Shown in pieces: positions 1 through 44,115 of a DNA stretch of 64,000 nucleotides (position 1 is its first letter; every line of letters starts with the position of its first letter). The translations under genes were made by a program, and so were the position numbers. A model generated the notes under the pieces. It made no database searches, was not told where the DNA came from, and saw nothing but the letters and a program-made list of their open reading frames with translations. Origin of the DNA: an uncultured Planctomycetota bacterium. GTDB taxonomy: Bacteria > Planctomycetota > PLA2 > JAEUHO01. Location of the stretch: NCBI GenBank assembly GCA_963752285.1, contig CAVVXN010000005.1, positions 32,001-96,000 on the forward strand. The letters are read 5' to 3'.

Positions 1-2684
<2,684 letters not shown>

Positions 2685-31495: not shown

Positions 31496-33151
31496 TCATC
31501 GCCCGGGGTCGGCGCCCACCAGCTCGACCTCCACCCCGGCGGGCGCCGCGTGTGCGAGGGCGTCCACGACCCAAGCGAGCCGTGCACGCGTGGGGGGATC
31601 GGGGGGGGCGAATCGCAGCGTGGCGCACGGTCGTCCCTGGTGGCGCGTGAGCACGCGGGGCCGCAGGGACAGGCGTGCGCTCGCGACCTCGCCGAGCGGG
31701 ACGCTCCGCCCGTCGCGGACCCCGACCGGGAGCGAGGTCCGCTCCAACGGGCTCCGAGCGCCCTGTCCGTACCGGACACGGACCCGACGCGCGCGGCCGT
31801 CCACACGACACGTCGCAAGGAGCACGAGCCCGTCCCCCGCGGCCTCGAGGAGGCGGCGGACGTCCCGTTCCTCGAGCCCCAGGGCACGAAGTCGATCCGC
31901 GTCGAACCGCCACGACGGGCTCGGCGCCACGTCGAGTCCCGCGCGCGTAAACCGCGCCGTGGGGACCGCTTCGCGAACCTGCGCCTCGGCGCGCGCCATC
32001 TGCGCCTCGAGCACGGAGCGGTCGTCGCCGGTGAACCGGATCGCGGGCGCGGTCCGGAGGTCGTCGGCCGCGGACACGGCCGCGGACGGCACGGCGGCCG
32101 TCATCGCACGGACGAGATCCCCCGTCGCCGTGGGGTCCGCGGGCCCAAGGAGCACGCGGGCGAAGGTGCCGGCCAGGGGCTCCTCGTCCTTCCCGTCCTC
32201 GACGATCACGATCGGCTGCGCGCGGTCCGAAGCCGTCTCCGCGACGGCGCGCCGTGCCGCCTCCAGGGCTCGTTCCTTCGACGTGCCGGCAGGGAACGCG
32301 AGGCGGACCTCGTCCCACCGGTCGAGTAGCGCGAGGTCCACACCCGGCACCGGGGACGACCTCCGGAACGCGTCGAGCGCGCGGGCGACGCCCACCCGCG
32401 CGACGCGGACGGCCTCCGACACGTGCACCGCGAACAGCACCGCGGGGCCGTTCGCGAGGCGGACCCAGCCGTCGTCGGTCGCGAGCGCTGTCCGGACCTC
32501 CGCGACGTCTCGCACGCGCACGTCGGGCGCCACGACGACGTCGCCGAGGGCCTCCGGCGACGCGAGCGGCTCCGTGGGGCCGGTCGGGACCAAGGAGAGC
32601 GCGTCGAGGACGCGCGCCCACGCGAGACCGCGCGCCGCGAGCCGCTCCGGCGAGACCACCACCTCGACCTCCGGCGTCGGGGCGCCGATCGGATCGACGC
32701 GTCGGACGCCGGCAACGCGCGCGAGCGCCTCGCCGACCGCCTCGGTCGGCGCGACGAGGTCGGCAATCGTCCCGTCGCGCCGGAGGACGACGTAGAGCGT
32801 CGCGGTCGGCCCCGCGTCGAGGAAGACCTCGACCTGGACGTTCGGGGGCAGGGCCGCGGCCGCCACCCGGTCGCGCACGGCGGCGAGGAGATCGGACGGG
32901 CTCGCGGGGAAGGAGAGACGGAGGAACGCCGCGCCGTCGCGCGTGACGTCGTCGAGCGAGGCGAGCCCCGGGAGGTCCTTCAGCGCGGACTCGAGGGGGA
33001 GCACGCCCTGCATCTCGAGCGCCTCCGCCGTCGCCCCGGGCGCGCGGAGGCGGAGGACCACGCTCTCGGCCGCCGGTCCCGCTCGCGCCCGGCCGGCGGC
33101 GAGCGCGACGCCGAGGAGACTCGTTCCGAGGAGCAAGGCCTTCCGCCGCAT
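31496..33151 (-). CDS. AcrB/RND-like protein consisting only of the periplasmic porter and docking domains
   Basis: Signal peptide; PGATAEALE..VLPLESAL..LPGL, VAGVRRV...PERLAARGL, VRVRDVAEV, PAGTS, GDDRSVL, DGRSVPLGEVA, TRHQGRP; no TM helices. Confidence 0.75.
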   Translation of the reverse strand: MRRKALLLGTSLLGVALAAGRARAGPAAESVVLRLRAPGATAEALEMQGVLPLESALKDLPGLASLDDVTRDGAAFLRLSFPASPSDLLAAVRDRVAAAALPPNVQVEVFLDAGPTATLYVVLRRDGTIADLVAPTEAVGEALARVAGVRRVDPIGAPTPEVEVVVSPERLAARGLAWARVLDALSLVPTGPTEPLASPEALGDVVVAPDVRVRDVAEVRTALATDDGWVRLANGPAVLFAVHVSEAVRVARVGVARALDAFRRSSPVPGVDLALLDRWDEVRLAFPAGTSKERALEAARRAVAETASDRAQPIVIVEDGKDEEPLAGTFARVLLGPADPTATGDLVRAMTAAVPSAAVSAADDLRTAPAIRFTGDDRSVLEAQMARAEAQVREAVPTARFTRAGLDVAPSPSWRFDADRLRALGLEERDVRRLLEAAGDGLVLLATCRVDGRARRVRVRYGQGARSPLERTSLPVGVRDGRSVPLGEVASARLSLRPRVLTRHQGRPCATLRFAPPDPPTRARLAWVVDALAHAAPAGVEVELVGADPGR

Positions 33152-33203: not shown

Positions 33204-34061
33204 ATGAAGCCCGGCGGCCTCGTCGTGCCGATCCTCCTCGCGGCGACCCTCGCCTTCGCCGTGCCCGAGGGCTGGCACACTTCGAGAAAGGACGGCCTCG
33301 CGGCCGCCACCACCAGCGGGAAGCCGCTCTTCCTCGTGACGCTCTGGCCCCCGAACGTGTGAGGGTCCTGCGACGCCTGGCGGAGCCGGGTGGAGACGGA
33401 CGAAGGGGTGGGGAAGGCCCTCTCGCGGTTCGAGTGCGTGGAGGAGGTCTACGACGGGCTTGGAGGGAACGTGATCGCCTGGACGAAGGCGCACGGAGGC
33501 ACGAGCGACGATCCCTCGGCGCAGGTCTTCGTGCTGGGCCGGGACGGCGCCTTCGTCGCGCGGGCGTCCGACGCGACCGCGCACGACCCGAAGGCCCTCG
33601 CGACCTGGCTCGGCGAGCAGTCGAAGGCGTACGAGCGGGCCCATCCGAAGACCGCGCTCCCCCTCGTTCGCGCCGAGGTCGCGATCGAGGGCCAGGGCGA
33701 GGACGAGAAGGCGGTGTGCGCGGCCCTCGACGACGCGAAGCGGCGGGGCGCGCCGGCCCTCCTCTACTTCGGGCGCGACGCGGCGCCCGCGGGCGACAGG
33801 AAGCTCGGGAAGGAGGTCGAGGCGTCGCAGAAGCTCGAGCGGGGCGCGCTCGACGCGAAGTCGGCGGCCCAGGCCGCGAAGGGCTGGGTGCTCCTGCGCT
33901 TCGACCTCGCGGACCCGACGCACGCGCGGCTCGCGAAGTCGTTCGGGGTCGGGGCGGCGCCGGACGTGGTGCTGGTGGTGCCGGGCGGGGACGCGCCGAT
34001 CGACCTCGGCGTCCCGAGCGCGGCGACGCTGTGCTACCGGTTGAAGAAGCACGCGCCCTGA
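33204..34061 (+). CDS. Candidate selenoprotein: exported tandem thioredoxin-fold protein with UxxC (U53-G-S-C56)
   Basis: ORFs 32943..33362 and 33390..34061 share a frame, separated only by TGA 33360-33362: ...W-x4-DGLAAATTSGKPLFLVTLWPPNV-U-GSC-DAW...; hairpin follows. Confidence 0.85.
33365..33401 (+). promoter_or_regulatory. Bacterial SECIS-like stem-loop
   Basis: Lower stem GTCC/GGAC; upper stem CGCCTGGC(33374-33381)/GCCGGGTG(33385-33392); apical loop GGA 19 nt after TGA. Confidence 0.7.
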
Positions 34062-34192
34062 ACGGCGCGGCGTCGGCCGAGACGGTCGGGCGTGCTCGGC
34101 TCCGGCGGGACCGCACGGCCGCCGGATCCCGGATTCGGGACGTCCCCTCGTGGCGTGGGAGAACAAAGCCCCGGACAGGAGACCCCGTCCCC

Positions 34193-34681
34193 ATGCACGA
34201 GCACGAGCCGCTCCCGGACTCCGTACGCGAGACCATCGACCTCTGGGTCTCGGACTTCGCCGAGCGTCCGGCCGCGGTGGAGCCCCTCGCGCGCGTGGGG
34301 ACGCACGGGCTCGAGGTCCTGGCCAGCTTCCTCGGGGCCGCGTGCCACGGCGGCGTGGAGCCGCCCGACATCGAGGGGGGAGAGGTCGCCCACGCGCTCC
34401 TCGACCACGTCGCGACCCTGGCGCTGCCGCCCGCGTCGCGCGACGCGGTGCCCGATCTCGTCGCGGCCTTCCTCGCCGACCTGGAGGAGGTCGGCCGGCT
34501 CTCGGGCGGGCGCGCGCTCGCGGCCCAGGTGCGCGCGACGGCGCCGGCCTACCGCGAACGTGCGTCCGGGCGTACCCACGTCGAGAAGCGGGTCGCGCCC
34601 AAGGTCGGCCGGAACGACCCCTGTCCCTGCGGGTCCGGGAAGAAGTACAAGCGCTGCTGCATGAACGCGCTGGACCGCTGA
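34193..34681 (+). CDS. SEC-C motif (Zn-binding) domain protein
   Basis: C-terminal KVGRNDPCPCGSGKKYKRCC; AGGAG SD. Confidence 0.88.
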   Translation: MHEHEPLPDSVRETIDLWVSDFAERPAAVEPLARVGTHGLEVLASFLGAACHGGVEPPDIEGGEVAHALLDHVATLALPPASRDAVPDLVAAFLADLEEVGRLSGGRALAAQVRATAPAYRERASGRTHVEKRVAPKVGRNDPCPCGSGKKYKRCCMNALDR

Positions 34682-39131: not shown

Positions 39132-39343
39132 CCTCGCCGCGGTCCGACCGTCGTCCGAGCGCCGCGTCCCGGTGTCGGGCGCGCGCGCGTGGGGAGCGCG
39201 ACGACCCGTCCGGACTCCGCGCGGCGGCGCTCGAGAACCGGTTGGGGGGGGCGTGTGCGGGGGAGTACGCTCCGGGCCTCCCATCGGCCCCGGGGAGGGG
39301 CATGGGAGGCCGCCGGCGCGTCGCGGCGCGAGGGAGGCCCGTC

Positions 39344-40591
39344 ATGCCGAACATCGACACGGGGAACACCGCGTTCATGCTGCTCTGCTGCAGCCTCGTC
39401 ATGCTCATGACGCCGGGACTCGCGTTCTTCTACGGCGGGCTCGTCGGGCGCAAGAACGTCCTCTCGATCATGATGCAGAGCTTCGTCTCGATGGGGTGGA
39501 CGACGGTGCTCTGGTGGGCCTGCGGGTTCTCCCTCTGCTTCTCGGGAACCCACGCGGCCGGGACCGACGTCGGGGGCGTGATCGGGAACTTCGACTGGGC
39601 GTTCCTCCACGGCATCACGCTCGCGACCCCCTCTCCCAACCCGTCGATCCCCATGCTCGTGTTCTGCGCCTACCAGATGATGTTCGCGATCATCACCCCC
39701 GCCCTGATCACGGGCGCCTTCGCGAATCGCATCACGTTCAAGGCCTACATGCTGTTCCTCACGGGTTGGCTGCTTCTCGTCTACTTCCCGTTCGTGCACA
39801 TGGTGTGGGGCGGCGGCCTCCTGGCGGAGTGGGGGGTCAAGGACTTCGCGGGCGGCATCGTGGTGCACAACATCGCCGGCATCGCCGCGCTCGCCTCCGT
39901 CCTCTACGTCGGCCGCAGGAAGGTCGAGGACCGCGGCCCGCACAGCATCCCGCTCGTGGCCCTCGGCACGGGGCTCCTGTGGTTCGGATGGTACGGGTTC
40001 AACGCCGGCTCCGAGTTCCGCGTGGACTCGGTCACGGCCGTCGCGTTCCTGAACACCGACATCGCGGCGTCGTTCGCGGCGATCTCGTGGCTCGTCGTCG
40101 CCTGGACGCTGCAGCGGAAGCCCAAGTTCCTCGGCCTGCTCACCGGCGCCGTCGCGGGGCTCGCGACGATCACGCCCGCGGCCGGCTACGTGTCGCCCGC
40201 CGCGGCCGCCGCCATCGGCGCGATGGCGGGCTGCGTGTGCTACGGCGCCGTGGCCCTCAAGAACCGGTGGAAGTGGGACGACGCCTTGGACGTCTGGGGC
40301 GTCCACGGCGTGGGCGGTTTCCTGGGGATCGTGCTCCTCGGCGTGTTCGCGACCACGGCGTGGAACCCCGTAAGCAGCGGCGGCGTGGACGGATTGCTCG
40401 CGGGCAACGCCGGCTTCTTCGTGAAGCAGCTCGGCGCGGTCCTCGTCTCGTCCGGCTGGGCGTTCGTCTTCACGCTCGGCATGCTGTGGGGCATCGACCG
40501 GCTGACGCCCGTGCACGTCGCCGAGGGACACGAGGAGCGTGGCCTCGACGACGCGCTCCACGGGGAGACGGCGTATCTCGAAGGGGCGTGA
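39344..40591 (+). CDS. amt: Ammonium transporter
   Basis: LMTPGLAFFYGG, DFAGGIVVH, WFGWYGFN, GLATITPAAG, DDALDVWGVHG (twin His). Confidence 0.96.
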   Translation: MPNIDTGNTAFMLLCCSLVMLMTPGLAFFYGGLVGRKNVLSIMMQSFVSMGWTTVLWWACGFSLCFSGTHAAGTDVGGVIGNFDWAFLHGITLATPSPNPSIPMLVFCAYQMMFAIITPALITGAFANRITFKAYMLFLTGWLLLVYFPFVHMVWGGGLLAEWGVKDFAGGIVVHNIAGIAALASVLYVGRRKVEDRGPHSIPLVALGTGLLWFGWYGFNAGSEFRVDSVTAVAFLNTDIAASFAAISWLVVAWTLQRKPKFLGLLTGAVAGLATITPAAGYVSPAAAAAIGAMAGCVCYGAVALKNRWKWDDALDVWGVHGVGGFLGIVLLGVFATTAWNPVSSGGVDGLLAGNAGFFVKQLGAVLVSSGWAFVFTLGMLWGIDRLTPVHVAEGHEERGLDDALHGETAYLEGA

Positions 40592-40674
40592 GGAGCCGTC
40601 CCGCAGGGCGACGGATCGCGACGCGGAGACGACGTTCGCGCGCTCCCGGTTCCCGGGGTATCCATGGCCTGCCG

Positions 40675-43600
40675 ATGGGCACCGAAGTCTCTCGCCCGAT
40701 GCCGCCGCCCGAGCCCCGTCCCGGGGACGACGGTTCGGGGGGGGACGCACCGTGGCCCCGCCCGGACGACCGGGTGGGGGGCTACCGCGTCCTTCGGTCC
40801 GTCGGCCAGGGCGGGATGGGACGCGTGTTCCTCGCGGAGCGCGACGGGCGTCGCGTCGCGCTGAAGGTCATGCGGATCGGCCTGGCGTCGGAGACCACGA
40901 CGCGCCGTAGGTTCGAGCGCGAGGCGCGCCTCGGGCTCGCCGTGCGCCACGAGTACGTCGTCTCCGCGTACGACGCGGGTACCCTCGACCGCGAGGGCGA
41001 GACGTACGGCTATCTCGCGATGGAGTACGTCGAGGGCCAGACGCTCCGCGCGCTCGCCGTCGAGCTGTCGCGTGTGCCGGAGGAGCTCTGCCGTCACGTG
41101 GGCCGCGCCATCGCGAGCGGGCTCGCCGCGATCCACGCGGCCGGCGCGGTGCACCGAGACCTCAAGCCGAGCAACGTGATCATCACGCCCGAGCAGATCG
41201 TGAAGATCATGGACCTCGGCGTCGCCCACGTGGTGGACGACGCCTCCCGGCTCTCGCGCACGGGGGAGTTCCTGGGGTCCGTCCTCTACGCCGCGCCCGA
41301 GCAGTTCGGCTCGGAGCCCGTGGTGGACGCGCGTACGGACCTGTATGCGCTCGGTCTCGTCCTCTACGAGCTCCGGACCGGTCACAACCCGTTCGAGCAC
41401 CCCGAGCTCGTGGGCGTCGTGCGAAACGTGCTGGAGCTCGCCCCGCCCCGACTGGGCGATCTCGAGCCCCAGACCTCACCGTTCCTCGAGGAGGTCGTGC
41501 ATACCCTCCTCGAGAAGGAGCCCGGGCGGCGCTTCGCGAGCGCACGCGCCCTCCTCCAGGTCCTGGAGGAAGGCGAGGACTCCGACTGGTGGCGCCGGCG
41601 CGAGCACGAGAGGAGGGTCCGGGGCACGCGACCGCTCCGACGTCTCGCGCGCCGCGCCGAGGTAACGCTCTGCGGCCGGGAGGAGGAGCTCGGGGCGCTC
41701 GTCGCGGCGTTCGAGCGGGCGCGGTCGGGCGAGGGCCAGGTGGTCGTCGTGGAGGGCGAGGCCGGCATCGGCAAGAGCCGCCTCGTGGACGAGCTGGTGG
41801 CGCGGCTCGCGGAGCGCGGCGCGTCGGTGCAGTTCCTCCTCGGCGCGCACCCGCCCGGAGGCGCGCCCGCGCGGACGGACGCCTTCCTCGCGCTCGTCCG
41901 CGACCACATCGGTACGGAGGGCGTGGAGGAGGCGATCGCTCCCTCGCTTCGCGAGACGCCCTATCTCGTCCCCGGCTTCGCCGCGCTGCTGCGGGGCGAG
42001 ATGGCGCCGCCCGGCGCCGTGACCCTCGGGGAGGAGGCGCGGCAGACCGCGTTGGCCGCCGTCCTCTCGGGCCTGGCCGCGGAACGGCCGACGATCGTGG
42101 CCGTCGAGGACCTCCAGCTCGCCAGCGCGGAGGAGCGACGCACCTTCCTCGCGGTCGCGGGCGCCGTCCGGGGCCACCGTCTGCTCCTCGTCGGCACGAC
42201 GCGCCCCGGGCTTCCGGCGACCTGGCATGCGGCGCTGGAGGGCGCGGTCGAGACCACGAGGATCCGCCTCGCCCGACTCGGCGCGAAGGACCTCGCGCGC
42301 CTCCTGGAGGACGGCGTCGGGTCGCGGGTGGCCGCCGAGCTCGGCTGGAAGATCGCGCAGAAGTCCGACGGCAACCCCTATTTCGCGCTGGAGATCCTGA
42401 AGAGCCTCAAGGACGCCAACCGGATCCTGCAGGGCGCCGACGGCGCGTGGCGGATCACGGGGACCCTCCGGGACGTCGAGATCCCGTCGTCGGTCGTGGA
42501 CCTGGTCGCGGCGCGGCTCGACGCCCTCGACGACGACGAGCGCGAAATCCTGGAGGTCGCCGCCTGCTGCGGGCACGAGTTCGACGCCGCGCTCGTCGCG
42601 ACGGCTCTGGGGCGCGAGCGGATCCCCCTGCTCCGCGCGCTGGGTCGCATCGAGCGGGGACCCGGGCTCGTGCGCTCGACGGGAGCGCGGTTCCGCTTCG
42701 ACCATCACCAGGTGCAGGAGACGCTCTACGCCCGTCTCTCGCCGCCCCTGCGCTCGGAGTACCACGTGCTCCTCGCCAAGGCGATCGAAGCGTCGTCTTC
42801 TCCGGCCGACGAGGACCCGCGCCGCGCCGTCGAGCTCTGCCACCACTTCCTCCACGGCGGCCGGCACGCCGACGCCTCCCCGTACCTGGCGCCCGCGCTC
42901 GCCTGGCTCTACCAGACCGCGCAGTACGAGGCCGTCGTGGACCTCGCCGAGCGCGCGCTCGCCGGACCCGCGGAACGCCGCCGGCGCCTCGAGATCCTCC
43001 TCTCCCTGGGCTCCGCGCTCCAGCCGCTCGGCCGGTGGGCGCGGTGGGAGGAGATCCTCGCCGAGATGGTCCGTCTCGCCGACGAGGAGGGCGACCTCGC
43101 GCTCCGCGCACAGAGTCGTTCGGCGCTCGGCTGGTTCTACTGCGAGGTGGGACGTCACGGGGAGGGCCAGGCGGCGTTCGAGGAGCAGCTCCAGCTGGCG
43201 ATTCGACTCGGCGACCGGGCCCTCGAGGCCGTCGCGCTCGGGAACGCCCGCGGCTACGGCATCGACACCGGCCACTTCGAGGAGGCCAAGGACGCGTACC
43301 TCCGCCAGGTCGCGATCGCACGGGAGATCGGGAACCGGAAGATCGAGCAGCAGGGGCTCGGCAACCTCGGGCTCTCGCTCGAGTACCTCGGGCGCTGGGC
43401 GGGGGCGCTCGACGCGTTCCGCGGCTCGCTGGCGCTCTCCGAGGTGAGCGGCGACCGCGTGAACTCCGGTCTGTGCCACGTCGCGCTCGGGCGGATGCTG
43501 CCCCTGCTCGGCGAGCCGGAGCGCGGGCACGCGCACCTCGAGGTCGCGCTCTCGACGTTTCGTGCGCTCGGGCCGCGGCGCGCCGAGACCTACGCGCTCC

Positions 43601-44115
43601 ACCGCCTGGGCATCGTGGCGGAGCAGGCAGGCGACCTCGCGCGCGCCGAGGCGTTGTACGAAGCGGGCCTCTCCATGCGCCGCGAGCTCGGGTACCGCGG
43701 CGGCGTCGCGCGAAGCCTTCGCACGCTCGGCGCGCTCCAGGTGGCTCGCGGGCGCACGGAGGAGGGAGCCGCGCGGCTCGAGGAGGCGGAGGCCGTCGCG
43801 CGGGCCGTGGAGGACCACGGCGACTGGGTCCTCGCCGCCGCGTACCTCGCCCTGCTCGGGCGGCGGGACGCTTCGGCCGCCGAGTCCCTCTTCGCCGAGC
43901 TCGAACCGCGACTCCGTGCGGCGGACCGCCTGGAGGCCCTCTACGTGCTCTGGCGGACGACGGGCGGGGACGGGCACCTCGCGGCCGCGCGGCGTCTCCT
44001 CGACGACCTGGTCCTCTACGCGCCGCCGGACCACCGGAAGGGAATGGTCGAGCGCGTGCCGCTCCACCGCGCGGTTCGCGAGGGGAGGGGCAGGGGACCG
44101 GTCCCCACCCCTTGA
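40675..44115 (+). CDS. Ser/Thr protein kinase with AAA ATPase and TPR domains (paralog of 5613..9281)
   Basis: GQGGMG, VALK, HRDLKPSN, MDLG, APE; GEAGIGKS, VEDLQ, GNPYF; TPRs. Confidence 0.92.
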   Translation: MGTEVSRPMPPPEPRPGDDGSGGDAPWPRPDDRVGGYRVLRSVGQGGMGRVFLAERDGRRVALKVMRIGLASETTTRRRFEREARLGLAVRHEYVVSAYDAGTLDREGETYGYLAMEYVEGQTLRALAVELSRVPEELCRHVGRAIASGLAAIHAAGAVHRDLKPSNVIITPEQIVKIMDLGVAHVVDDASRLSRTGEFLGSVLYAAPEQFGSEPVVDARTDLYALGLVLYELRTGHNPFEHPELVGVVRNVLELAPPRLGDLEPQTSPFLEEVVHTLLEKEPGRRFASARALLQVLEEGEDSDWWRRREHERRVRGTRPLRRLARRAEVTLCGREEELGALVAAFERARSGEGQVVVVEGEAGIGKSRLVDELVARLAERGASVQFLLGAHPPGGAPARTDAFLALVRDHIGTEGVEEAIAPSLRETPYLVPGFAALLRGEMAPPGAVTLGEEARQTALAAVLSGLAAERPTIVAVEDLQLASAEERRTFLAVAGAVRGHRLLLVGTTRPGLPATWHAALEGAVETTRIRLARLGAKDLARLLEDGVGSRVAAELGWKIAQKSDGNPYFALEILKSLKDANRILQGADGAWRITGTLRDVEIPSSVVDLVAARLDALDDDEREILEVAACCGHEFDAALVATALGRERIPLLRALGRIERGPGLVRSTGARFRFDHHQVQETLYARLSPPLRSEYHVLLAKAIEASSSPADEDPRRAVELCHHFLHGGRHADASPYLAPALAWLYQTAQYEAVVDLAERALAGPAERRRRLEILLSLGSALQPLGRWARWEEILAEMVRLADEEGDLALRAQSRSALGWFYCEVGRHGEGQAAFEEQLQLAIRLGDRALEAVALGNARGYGIDTGHFEEAKDAYLRQVAIAREIGNRKIEQQGLGNLGLSLEYLGRWAGALDAFRGSLALSEVSGDRVNSGLCHVALGRMLPLLGEPERGHAHLEVALSTFRALGPRRAETYALHRLGIVAEQAGDLARAEALYEAGLSMRRELGYRGGVARSLRTLGALQVARGRTEEGAARLEEAEAVARAVEDHGDWVLAAAYLALLGRRDASAAESLFAELEPRLRAADRLEALYVLWRTTGGDGHLAAARRLLDDLVLYAPPDHRKGMVERVPLHRAVREGRGRGPVPTP

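Follow-up and report, generated by a model that had tools for sequence, protein, structure and literature searches.

We describe here a maintained gene for an exported and complete RND periplasmic headpiece, which lies on the minus strand of the 64,000-nucleotide stretch of DNA that was analysed (the window). The protein is almost certainly a genuine member of a family of TM-less RND headpiece proteins. RND pumps are central to the export of drugs, metals and lipids and, to our knowledge, their headpiece has been studied almost only within the twelve-helix, trimeric, proton-driven machine. Although the RND superfamily is well established, a natural and diverse family with this architecture appears to be undescribed: the freely available full-text literature that was searched, a review of RND pumps included, gave no account of RND headpiece proteins that lack TM helices by nature.

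Gene, export signal and architecture of the headpiece protein

The reading frame of the headpiece gene is intact, running uninterrupted across 551 codons to its stop (Table 1). Its GC3 is 0.91, as in the neighbouring real genes (the genomic GC content is 74%), and the third-position GC frame signal is unbroken from about position 31600 to about 33100. Upstream of 33151 the frame offers two alternative starts, ATG (33205) and GTG (33313). The start at 33151 was preferred because the divergent plus-strand gene begins at 33204, and also because the homologue from the same genus likewise opens with M-R-x-x-R followed by a hydrophobic core. In the public protein collection the gene is present solely as a form of 505 aa starting at M47, one of only four Met in the protein. 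It must be noted that, in the segment 33013-33151 (-), this call loses the first porter strand as well as the signal peptide, and that the protein would consequently seem cytoplasmic.

The N-terminus consists of MRRK, a hydrophobic core of 16 residues and ARA ahead of G25; it was classed as signal-peptide-like by the heuristic used, and cleavage is predicted after Ala24. In the structural model the helix formed by residues 2-19 (within residues 1-23) aligns to TM1 of AcrD, AdeJ and AcrB, from chain residue 10 onward. No hydrophobic segment was found past residue 24, a Kyte-Doolittle value of 1.6 is not reached by any 19-residue span beyond residue 60, and the twelve TM helices with their proton relay are absent. 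The intact frame of 551 aa and the cleavable-looking signal peptide are as an earlier note on this DNA had described them. Its further statement that every TM helix had been removed stands for TM2-7 and TM8-12 and does not for TM1, whose place survives as a signal or anchor. As a separate observation, the segment 33077-33151 (-) is reminiscent of Tat signals: residues 2-3 are RR, the core is weakly hydrophobic and the c-region (RARA) is basic. The RR of this putative Tat-like signal is missing from the same-genus copy.

The RND/AcrB-like similarity that the note had proposed was borne out by the HMM alignment it had suggested, the match to Pfam ACR_tran (PF00873) reaching an E-value of 3.3e-23 and 81.8 bits (cut-off 28) in three stretches confined to the periplasmic parts of that Pfam model. 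The NCBIfam models RND_permease_1 and RND_permease_2, CusA/CzcA (TIGR00914) and OqxB scored weakly (in this order, 46.3 bits with a cut-off of 1250, 36 with 1250, 21 with 701 and 15.8 with 2200) because they were built for the full-length pump. Sequence matches in the PDB placed residues 30-186 on CusA 53-218 and residues 361-546 on AcrB-type 662-852. A profile built from the alignment of 71 short-family members (A1) matched ZneA, CusA and AcrB with E-values of 4.5e-92, 8e-91 and 3.5e-73, respectively, in two blocks each, A1 positions 6-290 corresponding to loop 1 and about 296-557 to loop 2 in the three pumps alike. Among the best 60 of the 83 PDB sequences matched, the engineered loop fusions 5en5 and 7b8r were the only ones aligned to A1 in one stretch. 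The headpiece protein itself matches A1 end to end in a single block (positions 1-557, E 1.7e-118), while the seven full-length RNDs of the same genome match it in two.

Structure prediction of the monomer gave a consistent picture. The AlphaFold2 model built with A1 had a mean pLDDT of 90.4 and a pTM of 0.86, and the top 12 PDB chains retrieved with Foldseek were all AcrBper (E 8e-37 to 1e-34, TM 0.71-0.73). With VIA-align, Z scores of 32.9, 32.1, 32.0 and 31.1 were obtained for MtrD, ZneA, AcrB and CusA, respectively, with an rmsd of 3.0-3.6 over 517-520 residues. On MtrD, residues 24-551 of the model superpose on chain residues 36-864 (rmsd 3.2, 520 residues), and the C-terminal residue 551 falls on AcrB 867 (aligned range 39-867) and on CusA 866 (40-866). 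This superposition on pump headpieces indicates that the entire headpiece is kept, subdomain packing included. In the predicted structure all four porter and both docking subdomains are present, without the proton-driven membrane domain.

The missing parts were located by aligning 80 full-length RNDs and 71 short proteins to the A1 profile. At profile position 290 (residue 276), the median insert is 234 aa in the full-length RNDs, corresponding to TM2-7, and 0 in the short proteins. The join motif LDRWDEVRLAFPAGTS occupies residues 276-291, and PAGVEVELVG, at residues 537-546, stands directly ahead of the would-be TM8; both the direct joining of the two loops and this end point had been recognised in the earlier note. 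A second difference was found at profile position 206 (residue 195), with a median insert of 18 aa in full-length RNDs versus 2 in the short proteins and in the headpiece protein. Three further inserts of full-length RNDs, of 4-6 aa each, lie in PC1 and PC2. In the alignments with ZneA and CusA, the 18-aa stretch forms a beta-hairpin that follows the DN helices and precedes the conserved 'RDVA' strand, and it is presumably the exact equivalent of the hairpin residues of AcrB. Judged by these alignments, the short family is a group that has lost about 18 residues of the trimer-locking DN hairpin. The DC hairpin is kept in the headpiece protein. Both hairpins, DN and DC, link adjacent protomers in the RND trimer according to PMC8277102.

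Table 1. Features of the headpiece gene and of its product, with positions in the window.
Feature	Residues	Position	Strand	Basis or remark
TM-less RND ectodomain gene		31496..33151	(-)	551 codons + stop; stop codon 31496-31498
N-terminal signal peptide (predicted) at the place of RND TM1	1-24	33080..33151	(-)	Sequence and model alignment
Loop 1 half	25-278	32318..33079	(-)	A1 6-290 on ZneA 16-319, CusA 20-331
Loop 1 subdomains (approximate)	PN1 29-112; PN2 117-166 + 235-285; DN 167-234		(-)	Read from model secondary structure
Short loop in place of the long DN inter-protomer beta-hairpin	~190-200	32552..32584	(-)	Insert medians, ZneA/CusA alignments
Direct loop 1-loop 2 join, TM2-TM7 gone	275-290	32282..32329	(-)	Insert medians
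Loop 2 half, ending at the would-be TM8 start	279-546	31514..32317	(-)	A1 296-547 on ZneA 556-834
Loop 2 subdomains (approximate)	PC1 286-369; PC2 370-416 + 490-546; DC 417-489		(-)	Read from model secondary structure

At the level of single positions, no alignment column was conserved in at least 60% of the short members and in at most 20% of the full-length RNDs, and no family-specific site was thus found. The three-methionine metal site of the Cu(I)/Ag(I) pump CusA lies in the PC1/PC2 cleft; the column aligned to one of these Met, as mapped from the printed alignment, is L, V or I in 61 of the 71 short members. Of the 71 short proteins, 37 have Cys at both columns 166 and 241 of the profile, compared with 0 of the 80 full-length RNDs; this family-specific pair is probably a periplasmic disulfide in PN2/DN. 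Both the headpiece protein and its same-genus relative are without this pair.

Family membership, distribution and phylogeny

When 1.84 billion cluster representatives were searched exhaustively with HMMER, 279 proteins were obtained at E<=1e-3. The best 150 of these plus the query comprised 72 short proteins (480-640 aa and free of hydrophobic segments beyond residue 60), 39 full-length RNDs (at least 950 aa) and 40 fragments or proteins of intermediate length. The count of 72 takes in the query and its own database copy, so that same-architecture, TM-free homologues, for which the earlier note had proposed a search, are represented by 70 other clusters at 50% identity. For many of these short proteins the alignment with the query is one unbroken stretch from end to end, and the identity of family members to the query ranges from 20 to 35%. 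Five of the 10 members that were looked up have a source name, in each case 'multidrug efflux pump subunit AcrB'.

The N-termini of the short proteins are varied. By the same heuristic, 29 of 71 are lipobox-like, 21 signal-peptide-like, 17 long-anchor-like and 4 unclear; in addition, 44 of the 71 short proteins have Cys at the lipobox column of the alignment, versus 1 of 80 full-length RNDs. The predicted picture is of a family in which some members are tethered to a membrane, whether through a lipoprotein anchor or through one helix, and others are freed by a signal peptide, as is the case here.

A further copy was found in another genome of the same genus (G001). This copy is 36% identical over residues 6-545, and its frame, counted from the probable start, is open for 545 aa. 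In a search of 41 related genomes, only the own genome of the query (G000) and G001 gave a contiguous match, and the same two genomes were again the only ones among 401 genomes of the phylum, with three candidates scored per genome. For calibration, two other proteins of the window were 51% and 70% identical to their best matches in G001; therefore, the headpiece protein evolves faster than those two. PSD1, PSCyt2 and DUF1501 genes lie beside the G001 copy, which is consistent with Planctomycetota.

Further short members were located in two Kofleriaceae MAGs (L093 and L121) and on one metagenome contig (L124). In a locus search with alignment A3, 2 of the 80 genome loci and 1 of the 80 metagenome loci listed were of the short type. 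The A1 profile, run on 201 genomes of the phylum with six candidates scored per genome, detected the first loop in all full-length RNDs at about 1e-60, and in a word-indexed A1 search limited to 8000 candidates the matches listed were full-length RNDs, with the own copy as the only short member. The L121 protein, compared with 151 genomes of the G415 phylum at E 1e-8, a strict threshold for a family of about 25% identity, returned only itself. Matches in the ESM Atlas were to clusters of RND fragments only. A look-up of sequencing runs gave three DNA runs with small word shares and listed no RNA run.

Two phylogenetic analyses were carried out, and it must be considered that these trees are unrooted, derive from a profile built on the short family, and include sequences of skewed composition and long branches. 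A FastTree analysis of 71 short and 73 full-length ectodomains placed 68 of the 71 short proteins on one side (SH-like 96), with the headpiece protein as sister to the same-genus copy (SH 99). In a quick IQ-TREE tree (LG+G4) of 28 short and 28 full-length sequences, 22 short rows were grouped (SH-aLRT 93) around a core of 19 short rows that includes the headpiece protein (support 99), and six short rows were placed among full-length rows. A constraint joining 25 short rows, a group chosen after the first tree had been viewed, was 4.7 log-likelihood units above the free search and was not rejected (p-AU 0.57). We interpret these results as a single principal lineage of old origin, to which one or two separate losses of the membrane domain should perhaps be added.

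Three short, TM-free proteins, P0145, P0027 and P0095, stand among full-length pumps in both trees. P0027 pairs with P0095, and P0145 is sister to the full-length P0134 (SH-aLRT 95). The placement of the three hints that the membrane domain may have been lost more than once.

Genomic surroundings

Besides the single short headpiece gene, the genome carries seven full-length RND genes. All seven have an MFP (PF16576) match within about 1.2 kb, and six of them have OMF (PF02321) matches within about 3 kb. The headpiece gene, in contrast to these seven, stands outside any MFP/OMF operon: no MFP or OMF match was found in the window, the nearest lying about 80 kb off, which agrees with the earlier note. 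Neither was an MFP, OMF or RND neighbour found in the available DNA of five short-member loci examined, three of which have short flanks. When the own genome was searched with PF00873 for a partner gene encoding only the TM part of an RND, none was found nearby, two partial matches being located about 280 kb and about 535 kb away.

The headpiece gene is flanked by a convergent secreted-looking gene and by the divergent thioredoxin-like gene; glyoxalase, SEC-C, DinB and GH123 proteins are also encoded nearby. DinB is found near both same-genus copies. The SEC-C zinc motif (PF02810, E 6.5e-10) ends a small protein encoded at about 34150-34681 (+), between the thioredoxin-like and DinB genes. A large Ser/Thr kinase with AAA_16 and TPR is encoded at 39172-44115 (+), no more than about 6 kb from the G000 headpiece gene, and its counterpart in G001 (L123, 2634-6935 (+)) lies just upstream of the headpiece gene, with DinB in between. 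Ser/Thr kinases are near four of the five short-member loci, L121 and L093 included. Kinases are plentiful in these taxa, and their proximity may be due to chance in kinase-rich genomes.

The divergent thioredoxin-like gene (33204-34061 (+)) deserves a separate comment. It contains an in-frame TGA at 33360-33362, in the context ...LWPPNV-TGA-GSC..., after which the frame is open to 34061. If TGA is read as Sec, the product would be a secreted thioredoxin-like protein of 285 aa with UxxC at the place of CxxC. A match to Thioredoxin_7 spans the TGA (E 5.3e-6, 26.9 bits, slightly below the cut-off of 27), and a hairpin begins 3 nt past it (-31.1 kcal/mol, z -1.6), 14 of 200 shuffles folding equally well. 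A tRNA-SeC is present in the genome. The product of this gene is a candidate selenoprotein.

Possible function and significance

The closest known counterpart of the headpiece protein is AcrBper, its best Foldseek match (E 8e-37, TM 0.72), in which loop 1 is likewise fused straight to loop 2 without a TM domain. AcrBper, which was reportedly described for the first time in 2016, is an engineered construct in which the linker is artificial, the DN hairpin complete and the crystal form trimeric, whereas the headpiece protein is natural, about 19% identical to it, provided with its own export signal, joined without a linker and shorter by about 18 hairpin residues. As for natural pumps, the periplasmic loops of the HME and HAE-1 permeases ZneA, CusA, MdtB, MexK, AcrB and MtrD are homologous to those of the headpiece protein (profile E 1e-92 to 1e-73), and the PN1-PN2-DN plus PC1-PC2-DC fold is common to both (Z 31-33). 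Unlike these permeases, the headpiece protein is without TM2-12, and consequently has neither proton relay nor transport cycle, and its DN hairpin is shortened.

The best explanation as a whole, to which we assign a probability of about 0.42, is that the headpiece protein works by itself in the periplasm, binding molecules or handing them over without energy input and outside any tripartite pump. Its porter clefts would hold amphiphilic or lipid-like molecules, and its role would be that of a buffer, chaperone or carrier. Three considerations lead to this proposal. Without a transmembrane proton relay, the RND transport cycle should be impossible. Given the loss of the DN hairpin and the lack of MFP and OMF partner genes, assembly into the trimeric funnel that tripartite pumps have is improbable; the hairpin argument draws on the sequence alignment and on the general structure of the pumps. 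The conserved porter clefts are the likeliest functional surface, from which we infer a passive binder or carrier. Passive ligand binding as the actual job of the protein is a tentative assignment, for which we see somewhat less than an even chance. In PMC8617272, engineered AcrBper is reported to fold and to bind drugs in the deep pocket without the TM domain, and its crystals are reported to be trimeric. Since AcrBper is trimeric in crystals, oligomers of the headpiece protein could also form. A broader version of the proposal, in which a diverse, probably ancient family of tethered or free periplasmic proteins has retained the complete headpiece, has shed both proton engine and trimer lock, and works in the form of monomeric, energy-independent carriers that take up lipids or amphiphiles at one membrane and pass them on, is at present rather doubtful.

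The earlier note had suggested a soluble periplasmic porter or docking protein that would serve as a ligand sink, an adaptor or a pump modulator. The maintained, exported headpiece agrees with that suggestion, and its docking part is weakened by the loss of about 18 residues from the DN hairpin. As a rival reading, an accessory or modulator of tripartite pumps would dock on MFP or OMF, or would mix or compete with full-length trimers as an adaptor, a plug or a dominant-negative regulator. The retention of both docking subdomains with an intact DC hairpin is in line with such a role, and seven full-length RND systems in the genome are possible contacts. We consider it unlikely, however, given that the inter-protomer hairpin of DN is cut down family-wide, that the five short-member loci examined offer no pump component or RND as a neighbour, and that the short family is set apart from the sampled full-length RNDs and is not a recent paralogue of one pump.

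A structural or tethering protein of the envelope, using the RND-like fold as a scaffold in a role unrelated to small-molecule binding, would account for the failure to find conserved pocket residues and for the very high divergence, both within the family and against the same-genus copy when this is compared with the two calibration proteins. It would also fit the membrane tethering of the majority of members, as judged from heuristic N-termini and the lipobox Cys column. Even so, a scaffold would have no need of the four-subdomain porter arrangement, which is kept with its clefts at an rmsd of about 3 A to working pumps, and this role seems to us quite unlikely.

According to another explanation, the protein is a bitopic inner-membrane protein whose uncleaved TM1 packs on a separately encoded membrane partner, forming a split transporter. 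The alignment of residues 1-23 to TM1 and the long, anchor-like hydrophobic segments at the N-terminus of 17 of the 71 members speak for it. The lipobox Cys at the aligned position of 44 of the 71, on the other hand, means that no helix is conserved there, the partial ACR_tran matches of the genome are far from the gene, and the hydrophobic core is here just 16 residues long and followed by A-R-A, all of which makes a split transporter highly improbable. Finally, that a full-length pump gene has decayed to leave this remnant, or that the gene is an artefact of assembly, could be proposed from its rarity in its own phylum, where this query found a contiguous match in G000 and G001 only among both 41 and 401 genomes, but, in agreement with the earlier note, which had argued against decay, this is almost certainly not the case in view of the intact frame and normal codon bias, the two deletions exactly at domain borders, the confidently predicted fold, the same-genus copy, the 70 independent clusters of the same build and with the same ends from other assemblies, and the signal sequences and stop codons that the homologues have of their own, which argue against fragments of longer genes.

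In practical terms, the label 'multidrug efflux pump subunit AcrB', which automatic annotation puts on short members, inflates the counts of efflux pumps in metagenomes. The short family also supplies natural, soluble models of how porter domains recognise ligands. That a natural family consists of the headpiece only means that this module can exist independently, and raises the question of which job a pump headpiece does without energy input or pump partners. If true, the carrier reading would be a bacterial use of the RND fold as a soluble carrier and the natural counterpart of AcrBper.
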